DNA of 58,038 nt from a virus (Duplodnaviria; Caudoviricetes): the IMG/VR virus record IMGVR_UViG_3300018428_000023, positions 1 to 58,038 of that record; one strand, written 5' to 3'. A program made the translations under genes and the position numbers. The notes beneath the pieces were generated by a model. It saw only the letters and a program-made list of their open reading frames with translations. It made no database searches and was not told the DNA's origin. This document shows positions 33,568 to 36,358 of this stretch, in pieces; within the stretch, counting starts at the first letter, position 1, and each line of letters begins with the position of its first letter.

Positions 33568-33678
33568 ATGGATGCATATGAATACTTTAAAACAAAAGAA
33601 TTTAAATCTTTAGGCTTGCCTAAAAAAATATGGTTACGCTTGCAGGTTGCATTCTTTGAAACTATACAAATGTTATGA
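33568..33678 (+). CDS. 36-aa leader protein of the two-component operon
   Basis: MDAYEYFKTKEFKSLGLPKKIWLRLQVAFFETIQML; ATGA overlap with the next gene; not in the ORF track. Confidence 0.6.
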   Translation: MDAYEYFKTKEFKSLGLPKKIWLRLQVAFFETIQML

Positions 33679-33863
33679 AAAACTTTTCTTCTATAAGAGC
33701 AGTGTACCTATTGATGTCTTTAGTTCTATTGATGGGTTTATTGCTTAAAAATTGGTATGTAATATTATTTGTAGTTGTTATGCTACAAGTGGGTGTGTGG
33801 ACAAAGTTTTGTCCCAGCAAATGGCTTTTTGAAAAACTTGGTTTCCGTAAGAGTGATTTGTAA
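33675..33863 (+). CDS. YgaP-like/DUF2892 two-TM membrane protein
   Basis: RAVYLLMSLVLLMG...VGVWTKFCPSKWLFEKLG: two TMs followed by the conserved CP motif. Confidence 0.7.
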   Translation: MKNFSSIRAVYLLMSLVLLMGLLLKNWYVILFVVVMLQVGVWTKFCPSKWLFEKLGFRKSDL

Positions 33864-34768
33864 TGGGTGCTTTACAGGGTATATCAAAAAAGAGTAGAAT
33901 ATCTTTACTTATTGCTGTCATTATTATGATAGCGTTTTTTGGTGTAGAAACTTGTATTGTATTTGGTCTTTGTGAACCCAGTTATTTTTTAGCCGGTTTT
34001 GGATATGCTTGTATTATTGGTTTTATGCCACCCTTTTTTATAGTAGTAGTTGAATTTTTACAACAAAAAAAAGCAACACTGTCAAGCTTATCACAAAAAA
34101 ATATATACCTAGAACATGCAGCAAAAATCATTAGACATGATATGCACAGTGGTATCAATACTTACCTACCGAGAGGAATCAAGTCCCTTAACCGCAGACT
34201 TACTGAAGAAAATATTGAAGAACTCAGAATCAAAGCACCGCTGCAATTAATTACAGATGGTTTACATCATGCTCAAAAAGTGTATGCTGGTGTATATGAG
34301 TTTACAAATTTGGTAAAAGAGAACGCTGTCTTAAACACAGAAACTTGCAATCCAAAAAAAATATTAATTGACTATCTTAGGTTAACTGCTTATAAAAATC
34401 AAGTAATATTAGATGACAGTTTACCAGAATCATTAGAATTAAATGAAGCATTGTTTTGTACTGCTATAGATAATTTAATTCGTAATGGTCTTAAGTATAA
34501 TGATAGCCCAACTAAATGGGTTAAAATATATCATGAAGGATCTTACCATACTGGTTCATTTATTGTGGTGGAAGATAACGGTCGTGGTATAACACAAGAA
34601 GAATTTATAGAATTAAGTAGACCTTATGCCAGAAAAGAAGGCCAACAAGAACAAGGCACAGGGTTGGGCTTAAACATATGTATTGAAATATTAAAAGAAC
34701 ATGGATTTAAAATATCCGCAGAAAAGAAATTAAAAGAAACTGGAACCAAAATAAAAATTGAATTATGA
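33863..34768 (+). CDS. Membrane-bound sensor histidine kinase
   Basis: Two N-terminal TMs; H-box IRHDMHS; N-box IDNLIRNGLKY; G1 EDNGRG; G2 GTGLGLNI. Confidence 0.92.
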   Translation: MGALQGISKKSRISLLIAVIIMIAFFGVETCIVFGLCEPSYFLAGFGYACIIGFMPPFFIVVVEFLQQKKATLSSLSQKNIYLEHAAKIIRHDMHSGINTYLPRGIKSLNRRLTEENIEELRIKAPLQLITDGLHHAQKVYAGVYEFTNLVKENAVLNTETCNPKKILIDYLRLTAYKNQVILDDSLPESLELNEALFCTAIDNLIRNGLKYNDSPTKWVKIYHEGSYHTGSFIVVEDNGRGITQEEFIELSRPYARKEGQQEQGTGLGLNICIEILKEHGFKISAEKKLKETGTKIKIEL

Positions 34769-35202
34769 TTAATACATTAATGTTAATTGATGATGAGAAT
34801 CTATTCCACCTAGTATTTGAGGATGCGTGCTCTCTACTAGATATGGCCTTATCTATTGAAGCCCTTGATAGCTCTGATGAAGCAGATGCTAAATTTAAAA
34901 AATGGTTTCCTGATGATCCTGATCATGAAAGACCTGAGTGTGTGTTTGTTGATCTTAATATCATTGGGTCTTCTTATGATGGTATTGAAATGATTAGAAA
35001 GGTAAACCATGAGTATGGTAATGGTTGCGTTATTGGCATTATCTCCTCTTCTTCTGATACACAAGAGATTGAGAAAGCCAAAAAGGTAGGCGCACAATTC
35101 TGGATTATTAAGTCTGATGACATTGAACCACGTCTTGAAGAGTTTATGAAAGACTATGATGGATATGTTAAAAAGACAGCACCTTTTAAAATATATAAGT
35201 GA
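34765..35202 (+). CDS. Stand-alone response regulator receiver (CheY-like)
   Basis: LIDDE acidic pocket, phosphoacceptor VFVDLN, IISSS, WIIK; no output domain. Confidence 0.9.
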   Translation: MINTLMLIDDENLFHLVFEDACSLLDMALSIEALDSSDEADAKFKKWFPDDPDHERPECVFVDLNIIGSSYDGIEMIRKVNHEYGNGCVIGIISSSSDTQEIEKAKKVGAQFWIIKSDDIEPRLEEFMKDYDGYVKKTAPFKIYK

Positions 35203-35780
35203 TTGAAATAACTGAACATACAAGGAACGTACTATTAGAGGTTGCCAAAAAGAAAAAGATATATGTTGAAGGCAGCTTTCTAAAACTATTACGTGCACCC
35301 AAAGATGATCAGGAATTTGCAGATTACTTAGAGCTTTGTAAAAAAAAGGATACAGATGCTCGTAGAAAAAGACTTCAAGTAACAAAACAAGTACAGGCTC
35401 AGAATAAAGAGCTTGAAGCTAAACAAAAGGAAAATGAAACCTTAATGATTGAACTTGAAGCAGCTTTAGAAGAGGCACAAAAATTAAAAGAACAAGCTGA
35501 AGCCGGAATGGATAAAGCACTAGAGGATTTGGATCTAATGCAAAAGCGTAGTCAGTTTGAGCTTATAGGTACTATTGTGAGAGTAGCACTAGTTATAATT
35601 GTAGGTGTAGGTGTTCTTACTACTGTAATGTATGGTCTTGCTTTAGTGTCGGGTACTGATACTCAGATAATTGGGAGTACCTGGTCTAACATGTTTGGTA
35701 TATTATTAACCAACGCGTTTAGTATTGTAGGTACTATAATGGGTGTAAAGTATGCAACAGAAAAATCAGAAGACAAATGA
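35199..35780 (+). CDS. Coiled-coil protein with two C-terminal TMs
   Basis: Long heptad region, then VALVIIVGVGVLTTVMYGLALV and MFGILLTNAFSIVGTIMGV; overlap-coupled to the receiver gene. Confidence 0.75.
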   Translation: MIEITEHTRNVLLEVAKKKKIYVEGSFLKLLRAPKDDQEFADYLELCKKKDTDARRKRLQVTKQVQAQNKELEAKQKENETLMIELEAALEEAQKLKEQAEAGMDKALEDLDLMQKRSQFELIGTIVRVALVIIVGVGVLTTVMYGLALVSGTDTQIIGSTWSNMFGILLTNAFSIVGTIMGVKYATEKSEDK

Positions 35781-36358
35781 AAAAATATTTTACTAGCATA
35801 CAGTCTGTGGCAATAGCTGTATTAATCATTGTTATATTGCTGATGAGGGCTTGTGATAAACAAGATCCTGTAGAACCTGTGATTATCACAAAGATTGAGA
35901 CTGTCTTTGATACTATTACAAAAGAAGTACCCGTTTACGTACCTAAATATGTACAGAAAATAGAGACCGTAATAGATACTATAGTTAAAACTCAACCTGT
36001 TGACACAACAGCAATACTTAGAGATTACTTTGCTACATATGTGTATCAAGATAGACAAGAGTTAGATAGTCTTAATCTAACAATTATAGACTCTGTATCA
36101 CAAAATAAAATCTTTGCACGTACTATATCATATGATTTAATATACCCTACTACAACAATCACAAAAGAGATCTATTTAAATAATAGAGAGCTTTATTGGG
36201 GAATTGGAATGCAAGGTAGAACTGACCAGCTTAACTATGTTGGCGGTGAATTACTTTATAGAAACAGAAAGAAACAAGCATATGGTCTTGGTATAGGTAT
36301 AAACCAAGATCTTCAGCCTGTAGTATCCGGAAAGCTTTATTGGAAAATAGGAAAATAA
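35777..36358 (+). CDS. Membrane-anchored or lipoprotein with C-terminal beta strands (spanin-like candidate)
   Basis: TM ending in LMRAC, T/V/D-rich extended linker, C-terminal strands WGIGMQG, YVGGELLY, YGLGIG, VSGKLYW. Confidence 0.5.
   Translation: MKKYFTSIQSVAIAVLIIVILLMRACDKQDPVEPVIITKIETVFDTITKEVPVYVPKYVQKIETVIDTIVKTQPVDTTAILRDYFATYVYQDRQELDSLNLTIIDSVSQNKIFARTISYDLIYPTTTITKEIYLNNRELYWGIGMQGRTDQLNYVGGELLYRNRKKQAYGLGIGINQDLQPVVSGKLYWKIGK

Follow-up and report, generated by a model that had tools for sequence, protein, structure and literature searches.

The stretch of DNA analysed here, hereafter the window, was a linear IMG/VR virus record of 58,038 bp (IMGVR_UViG_3300018428_000023), about 50% complete by estimate. 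The locus in question was a chain of six open reading frames (ORFs), all on the + strand and at the coordinates first assigned to them, and the stop/start overlaps through which the initial annotation had linked them were recovered (4, 1, 4, 4 and 4 nt). The chain opened with p36 (33568..33678; 36 amino acids (aa), no transmembrane (TM) segment) and continued with p62 (33675..33863; 62 aa, two TM helices at 6-24 and 28-46, invariant C46-P47-S48), a histidine kinase (HK, 33863..34768; 301 aa, TM1 at 15-33, TM2 at 48-66, loop of about 14 aa) and a stand-alone receiver, or response regulator (RR, 34765..35202; 145 aa, predicted phospho-acceptor D63, codon 34951-34953). It closed with cc193 (35199..35780; 193 aa, GTG start, coiled coil and TM hairpin) and tm193 (35777..36358; 193 aa, N-terminal TM or signal-anchor segment, conserved Cys26). 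The conserved unit, here called the module, consisted of four of these genes: p62, HK, RR and cc193. The HK and the RR are interpreted below as a two-component system (TCS) belonging to the phage, with cc193 as its probable output in the membrane.

The HK matched Pfam HATPase_c (E = 2.3e-14) and gave no Pfam HisKA match at E ≤ 1. The N, G1 and G2 boxes of a GHKL ATPase domain were all present (N204 and N208; D238-x-G240-x-G242; G265-x-G267-x-G269). Together with the H-box region they did not vary among 38 aligned HKs and were conserved among 84 unique ones, which bears out the annotation as a histidine kinase, with intact N, G1 and G2 boxes and a divergent candidate H-box. The segment R91-H92-D93-M94-H95-S96-G97-I98, invariant or nearly so in the same two sets, resembles the HisKA H-box, and by this likeness H92 (codon 34136-34138) is the candidate phospho-acceptor. 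The HK family profile matched solved structures of class I kinases (HK853, WalK/VicK, CpxA, QseC and EnvZ), reaching the HK853-type kinases mainly from DHp helix 2 on (the match to 8f71_A covered residues 71-287). The input part of the HK varied among relatives (TM only, TM plus PAS, GAF plus PAS, two PAS domains, or tandem HKs) and the RR-cc193 part was constant. Tandem kinases upstream of one RR and cc193 were found at L139, L239, L246, L247, L274, L285, L319, L380 and L385, and suggest that two inputs converge there on one output.

In the window, the HK was anchored by its two TM helices with a minimal loop between them, and p62, with two TM helices and the invariant C-P-S motif, was conserved together with this TM form of the kinase. 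The window copy of p62 gave no match to PF11127 (YgaP-like_TM, the former DUF2892) at E ≤ 1 and matched DUF4395 only (E = 0.016). Among its relatives, 19 of 36 matched YgaP-like_TM at E ≤ 0.1 (best 2.3e-5). The YgaP/DUF2892-like label of the initial annotation fits at the level of the family and is tentative for the window copy. p62 is a candidate membrane co-sensor of the HK.

The RR passed the Pfam Response_reg threshold narrowly (31.3 bits, cut-off 30.2). Residues D9, D10, D63, S94-96 and K116 were invariant in 40 aligned sequences, and the catalytic motifs also in 81 unique RRs, which agreed with the intact DD/D/S/K residues first reported for this gene. In the AlphaFold2 (AF2) model (predicted local distance difference test, pLDDT, 91; predicted template modelling score, pTM, 0.85; five beta-alpha units) they sat at the ends of strands 2-8, 59-63, 89-94 and 112-115. 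The RR thus had both the (beta-alpha)5 fold of a receiver domain and its acidic pair, phospho-Asp, Ser/Thr and Lys. The model obtained 300 Foldseek matches in the PDB at E ≤ 0.001, all of those listed being receivers (TM-score up to 0.77), but by sequence the RR was a distant receiver, with 3ilh as its best match among solved structures (E = 1.4e-4). An output domain was absent; alpha5 was extended, and a short strand stood at the C-terminus. The two families also occurred joined in three natural HK-RR hybrids; these fusions, the 4-nt overlap of the two genes and their constant adjacency point indirectly to a cognate pair. The HK and the RR very probably make up a functional TCS.

Five parts were distinguished in cc193: an N-terminal mini-domain (N-domain, about 1-37), a conserved basic helix (about 55-75), a coiled coil of variable length continuous with TM1, TM1 itself (122-140) and TM2 (165-183). 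The predicted model (pLDDT 83) began with a small alpha/beta element, continued with a single unbroken helix (38 to 151) that ran into TM1, and ended in the TM2 hairpin, as expected from the coiled-coil plus 2-TM protein annotated at 35199. TM2 and the residues following it were nearly invariant and the N-domain was less conserved. The model gave no match in the PDB fold search at E ≤ 0.001, cc193 gave no match in the family scans, and the protein atlas returned only viral clusters with an automatic coiled-coil name. The family comprised 203 representative clusters in the protein collection, all unnamed. Set against holins and antiholins, cc193 ended in two TM helices with a charged tail, yet its cytoplasmic part was 120 residues long and it matched no family.

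Parts of cc193 occurred in three types of natural fusion. A GAF domain preceded the coiled coil and hairpin in the first type (P0150; Pfam-confirmed), and one or two PAS domains did so in the second (P0161, P0159; Pfam-confirmed), these PAS domains visibly resembling the PAS insert of the long kinases. In the third type a canonical HisKA-HATPase core carried the cc193 N-domain together with its coiled coil (P0220, P0230, P0237; about 22 full-length members), and the N-domain thereby behaves as an input module; this fusion was not found in viral contigs, and the single metagenome scan gave only the standard module. The PAS-hairpin gene was found at 80 viral loci (63 unique), with no HK or RR of the module families in the 5-kb flanks of any of the 63. 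Three genomes encoding PAS- or GAF-hairpin proteins (63.7, 113.7 and 159.9 kb, all CheckV-complete) also lacked the RR family altogether. The hairpin is best read from these fusions as a unit driven by cytoplasmic sensor domains through the coiled coil, and the one-component PAS- or GAF-hairpin proteins appear to replace HK, RR and N-domain. A LOV-type blue-light sensor was considered for the PAS inserts and dropped, the sequences examined being without the Cys-containing motif of LOV domains. In one further protein (P0191, 348 aa), a FecCD-type ABC permease (Pfam E = 7e-49) was attached to the N-domain, coiled coil and TM1 of cc193; it could be an assembly chimera or a real fusion.

The co-occurrence of N-domain and RR was scored in every unique hairpin gene preceded by 700 nt or more of sequence (193 scored, 9 skipped), locus counts here and elsewhere being of related sequences and not of independent events. 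The N-domain was present with an RR immediately upstream at 132 of the 193 loci, and neither was present at 59, of which 58 were PAS- or GAF-fused. The N-domain occurred without an RR at two loci, both of one lineage, and an RR beside an N-domain-less hairpin at none. RR was followed by cc193 in almost every locus. The N-domain was therefore present exactly when an RR stood between sensor and hairpin, as expected if the phosphorylated RR docks on it, and this pattern (132 both, 59 neither, 2 mismatched) argues that cc193 is probably the output of the RR. The relay from the RR to the membrane protein of the next gene, proposed at the outset, received strong comparative support from the same co-occurrence and from the PAS and GAF fusions. 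A complex prediction for the RR with cc193 residues 1-120 (both as alignments) scored 0.10 relative to a mark of 0.32, and spoke neither for nor against binding.

Scans of viral contigs, with the best 80 kept for each query (HK, RR), gave 122 HK relatives and 114 RR relatives. A single metagenome scan added 80 further loci, all with the same module, and the protein collection held 4304 HK relatives at E ≤ 0.001 among 6877 candidates. The order p62-HK-RR-cc193 was kept in nearly all of 138 viral loci, with flanks that differed widely between loci. Of the six-gene synteny to be sought across genomes, the four-gene core was conserved, p36 was inconsistent, and tm193 was present in the closest relatives only. 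Among the records bearing the module, two genomes of 117-118 kb were CheckV-complete; others measured 186 and 248 kb, and the contigs went up to 322 and 430 kb. Searches of 50,697 deposited phage records, from which records very near the window were possibly excluded, gave no match by tblastn (HK, RR and cc193) or by 10-kb megablast.

A pattern scan of cellular genomes, one genome for each of 185,579 species, gave eight loci, one of them cut at a contig end. Six of the eight kept HK-RR-cc193 on 5-89-kb contigs of metagenome-assembled genomes (MAGs) from five different phyla, and look like binned viral DNA. A further locus (L145), on a Bacteroidetes MAG contig of 967 kb, was surrounded by transporter, cytochrome c, TetR-like and UbiB-like genes; its genome (G001) had a multi-PAS kinase with the same H-box and an RR 58% identical, and cc193 was found nowhere in it. 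The kinase of L145 (3568-7163), with two TM helices and repeated near-identical PAS pairs, was split over three ORFs (64, 515 and 425 aa) and followed by the RR and then by the TetR-like gene; the split may reflect frameshifts or repeat mis-assembly. At E ≤ 1e-25 the RR family was present in 1 of 401 sampled genomes of one phylum, that one being the L145 genome. An RR tree was built from 56 of 180 unique sequences, picked below 88% identity with special rows added. In it the cellular copy was a long branch nested among module-bearing contigs, with weak support, midpoint rooting and a direction of transfer not readable from the tree. With hundreds of copies on viral contigs and near absence from cellular genomes, the intact HK-RR pair is, by its distribution, the phage's own, as had been claimed from the window alone, and the module is an old one.

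A phage phosphorelay HK-RR-cc193, with a non-transcriptional and membrane-embedded output, would account for this arrangement, and the odds for and against it seem even from sequence comparison. The HK, probably with p62 in the membrane, would first autophosphorylate on H92 and pass the phosphate to D63 of the RR; in other lineages the input would enter through PAS or GAF domains. The phosphorylated RR would then dock on the N-domain of cc193, and the signal would run along the long helix into TM1. The nearly invariant TM hairpin would then behave differently in the inner membrane, either by oligomerising or by touching a second membrane protein. Finally, the hairpin would modulate holin-dependent lysis, and the phage would advance or delay lysis by the sensed state. 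The one-component form (PAS or GAF, coiled coil and hairpin) would skip the HK and the RR. Lysis timing is the role favoured for the hairpin from the relatives, and is put forward tentatively. In its full form, the proposal is that a modular sensory system of many uncultured aquatic phages gates holin-dependent lysis, with the latent period set by the host envelope, redox or energy state; this is given a probability of roughly 0.3.

The genes next to the module were clustered in 35 non-redundant long loci and the window. Five recurrent upstream neighbours were c13 (PG_binding_1 plus Amidase_2, PHROG endolysin matches), c8 (phrog_33083 endolysin, E = 5.5e-16), c14 (DUF5675), c5 (Phage_holin_4_1 at 21.8 bits, cut-off 22.2; phrog_199 holin, E = 9e-4) and c4 (about 80 aa, two TM helices, no family match). 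The typical order was c4, endolysin, c5, p62, HK, RR, cc193. An enzyme or c5 lay within 1.5 kb on the same strand at 20 of 36 loci, and the enzyme was present in 16 (five c13, six c8 and five c14), three different enzyme families thus filling the lysis slot beside the module. In the full set of 91 unique TCS loci flanked by 2 kb or more on each side, c13 or c8 lay within 2 kb at 33, and any of c13, c8, c14 and c5 at 43 (45 if c4 was counted). At 40 of the 63 one-component loci, 300 nt or less separated c4 from the hairpin gene, and c4 is a candidate membrane partner. A PhoH-like gene (Pfam PhoH E = 9e-65) was located directly 3' of cc193 in L039, L055, L059 and L065 (about 7900-8740), and before p62 in L066.

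In the window, c4 was the only one of these five neighbours present (28991..29236, - strand; 81 aa, two TM helices, charged tail, holin-like in shape only), and it lay 4.6 kb upstream of the module on the opposite strand. It belonged to a block of small genes (28991-29860, - strand) with an 84-aa amphipathic protein and a 102-aa TM plus coiled-coil protein (29552-29860), the latter with a weak TolA_bind_tri match and an i-spanin-like shape. The block may be part of the lysis genes of the window lineage.

Several observations weigh against the lysis proposal or against the relay beneath it. Phosphotransfer, the contact of RR with cc193 and the effect on lysis are all predictions from sequence. 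No lysis-type neighbour lay within 2 kb in 48 of the 91 TCS loci (46 if c4 was counted as a neighbour), no endolysin adjoined the module in the window lineage, and a complete 117.8-kb relative had its Amidase_2 gene about 74 kb from the module; the link to lysis suggested by the initial annotation was thus partly supported, by lysis-type or holin-like genes near the module in 43 of 91 related loci and not in the window lineage. The module in the window came after the ribonucleotide reductase (RNR) genes and not after late genes. c4 had no holin family match in Pfam or PHROGs, and c5 fell just below its Pfam cut-off. Full-length cc193 occurred without an RR in the lineage L273/L278 (record 74% complete). 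G001 has the HK-RR pair without cc193, and the RR can therefore have another target. Mean column identity was 85% for the RR versus 52% for cc193, with the N-domain as the less conserved part of the latter, which would fit an additional conserved partner of the RR, perhaps a host protein.

The same HK-RR-cc193 relay could serve a hairpin with a role other than lysis, such as superinfection exclusion through permeability or potential, tuning of host energy or ions, or the blocking of a host defence. About half of the loci, including the window lineage, were without a lysis gene nearby, the hairpin had no holin family or structural match, PhoH followed cc193 in 5 of 36 loci, and the position of the window module after the RNR genes also fits such a role. 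However, endolysin-type neighbours of three families and holin-like neighbours were far above the roughly 5% expected (a rough estimate, from one endolysin per 100 kb), and c4 adjoined the hairpin in one-component loci. A role of the hairpin outside lysis is considered unlikely.

A host protein as the target of the RR, either through hijack of a pathway or as a phosphate sink for host kinases, with cc193 co-transcribed and functionally separate, is considered improbable. Stand-alone receivers commonly act on varied partners, the RR was the most conserved gene of the module (80-95% identity versus 45-87% for cc193), and a chromosomal copy in G001 exists without cc193. The co-occurrence of N-domain and RR was almost perfect, however, and both were lost together with the HK when a sensor was fused to the hairpin. 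Cellular genomes, moreover, hardly contained the RR family, which leaves no evident host pathway that would rest on it.

The relation between cc193 and the kinase could also be reversed, cc193 acting as an upstream co-sensor or scaffold that controls the HK, with the output of the RR elsewhere or the RR serving as a sink. The HK of the window has only a minimal TM sensor, the near invariance of TM2 is as expected for a helix-helix contact, and the N-domain was also found fused to a kinase core. Complete genomes with a PAS- or GAF-hairpin gene and no HK or RR nevertheless imply that the hairpin must act by itself, and cc193 also accompanied cytoplasmic GAF/PAS kinases without a matched N-terminal TM region of the HK; the reversed relation is quite improbable. 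A host operon captured recently, an ordinary auxiliary gene set without a role specific to phages, had in its favour the one chromosomal HK-RR pair in a cellular neighbourhood on the 967-kb contig. This reading was contradicted by the hundreds of viral copies (50-95% identity, order conserved), the single RR occurrence among the sampled genomes of the phylum and the weakly supported nesting of the long cellular branch among module contigs.

The first and last genes of the chain lay outside the conserved core. p36 was inconsistently present in relatives (tblastn identity 39-81%, many loci), and was sometimes upstream of a holin-like gene and not of p62. tm193 accompanied the core only in the closest relatives (L002, L026, L077 and duplicate loci). 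It had one N-terminal hydrophobic segment and no C-terminal TM helix; the Cys was conserved in 4 of 4 relatives, with Arg at -2 as in an atypical lipobox. It gave no match in the family scans, and in the protein atlas it fell into a large viral family of 'hypothetical' proteins, one cluster of which was partly DUF6808. The spanin-like label first given to the sixth gene was not supported, on these grounds (no C-terminal TM helix, atypical lipobox, no family match and no endolysin nearby in the window), and its inclusion in the system was not sustained either, with tm193 beside the core in the closest relatives only. tm193 is a translationally coupled bystander, lineage-specific beside the core. 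Distant tm193-like genes (25-34% identity) were located just upstream of the PAS-hairpin gene or of c4 in L160, L207 and L209, so that in other lineages the family may have a loose tie to this neighbourhood.

The G+C content of the window was 29-36% (2-kb windows). Its replication set included a DNA polymerase, a primase, a DnaB-like helicase, an exonuclease and both RNR subunits, and the polymerase had at most 36% identity to any deposited phage. A terminator-like hairpin on both strands (32922..32949; 12 pairs on -, 8 pairs on +) was located 3' of the RNR large-subunit gene. Between the RNR genes and the module lay a 160-aa ORF (32955-33437, - strand) with a signal-peptide-like N-terminus; it was in none of 137 related loci and is therefore a lineage-specific insertion, and it was without a family match. 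With the hairpin and this minus-strand ORF both upstream of it, the six-gene chain looks like a unit of its own. A scan for sigma-70 promoters was uninformative (15 sites, 17.6 expected), Bacteroidota-type promoters being outside the scan.

Two giant ORFs converged on the module from the other side (36449-42112 and 42100-57090, both - strand; 1887 and 4996 aa), neither matching any Pfam family at E ≤ 1e-5. In the smaller protein (1887 aa) the last 400 aa were 99% identical in L002 and just 31-42% identical in a few other loci. Two very basic small proteins (80 and 67 aa) were encoded side by side at 27017-27462 (- strand), one of them with a weak DUF5872 match (E = 4.8e-5). A search for the tyrosine integrase family PF00589, which did not extend to serine recombinases, gave no match in the window or in four near-complete relatives, and this absence suggests a virulent lifestyle of the window phage.

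A salt-marsh habitat of the window phage was indicated by 14 DNA runs carrying the label salt marsh metagenome (2018, perhaps all from one campaign), which contained 78-97% of the sampled words; these came in addition to 4 runs that may be its source. In six metatranscriptome runs the share of these words was 7-16%. RNA-library contigs of 150-400 nt (depth 2-9; four runs) matched pieces of HK, RR, cc193, tm193 and neighbouring genes, some with 0-1 differences. These contigs are at most a weak hint of module expression, DNA carry-over being possible and the contigs being unable to show transcripts; gaps in their coverage carry no information.

The proposed relay resembles the pathways of single-domain RRs (CheA-CheY, DivJ/PleC-DivK, Spo0F and the phytochrome Rcp1/BRR type) in its class I kinase core and in a receiver-only RR that would act by contact. 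The RR model superposed on CheY, Spo0F, Sln1-REC, Rcp1 and bacteriophytochrome RRs with TM-scores of 0.64-0.77. It differs from those pathways in being phage-encoded, in an H-box too divergent for Pfam HisKA, and in its proposed partner, a coiled-coil membrane hairpin with no known family. The two TM helices with a loop of about 14 residues, and the small membrane protein p62 encoded just upstream, recall the intramembrane-sensing kinases of the LiaFSR and BceRS-AB type. Systems of that type end in DNA-binding regulators, whereas the RR described here has no output domain, and other lineages add PAS or GAF domains to the kinase core.

In staphylococci, LytSR controls the holin/antiholin-like CidA/LrgA; it is a cellular system in which LytR acts on transcription. 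In both cases a TCS is tied to small membrane proteins, but in the module the link would be post-translational, by way of the receiver-only RR and an input domain fused to the membrane protein, and phage-borne. No sequence relationship was found between the module and LytSR-CidA/LrgA. The T4 antiholins RI/RIII (lysis inhibition) and lambda S107 are membrane-associated proteins that set the time of holin firing on a signal. The module has no homology to them, and lysis genes adjoined it in about half of the loci. No description of phosphorylation or of PAS/GAF input to antiholins was found in the searched literature.

Among phages, a histidine kinase has been described in uncultivated pelagiphages in a conserved cluster beside curli (type VIII secretion system, T8SS) genes (PMC9599517). 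In the part of that paper available, no cognate RR is reported, and the curli neighbours and the phage group differ from those of the module. A survey of jumbo phages describes a divergent receiver never found with kinases (PMC7824862). The searched literature held no virus-encoded two-component relay with a membrane effector. What is new here is familiar kinase and receiver chemistry in viruses with an undescribed membrane-hairpin output, which also exists in one-component form.

The way in which virulent phages time lysis is understood mechanistically for only a few model phages. The module was abundant and common to phages of about 117 kb to 430 kb, and its one- and two-component versions with the same effector make up a natural experiment, in which the question can be tested with five small proteins. 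If the link to lysis is true, the module would act as a lysis clock under the control of phosphorylation, for which the searched literature has no counterpart, and could be a source of portable lysis parts gated by a signal. A latent period controlled by the environment would then matter for models of coastal viral mortality. The module may let these phages sense conditions and time the killing of their hosts.

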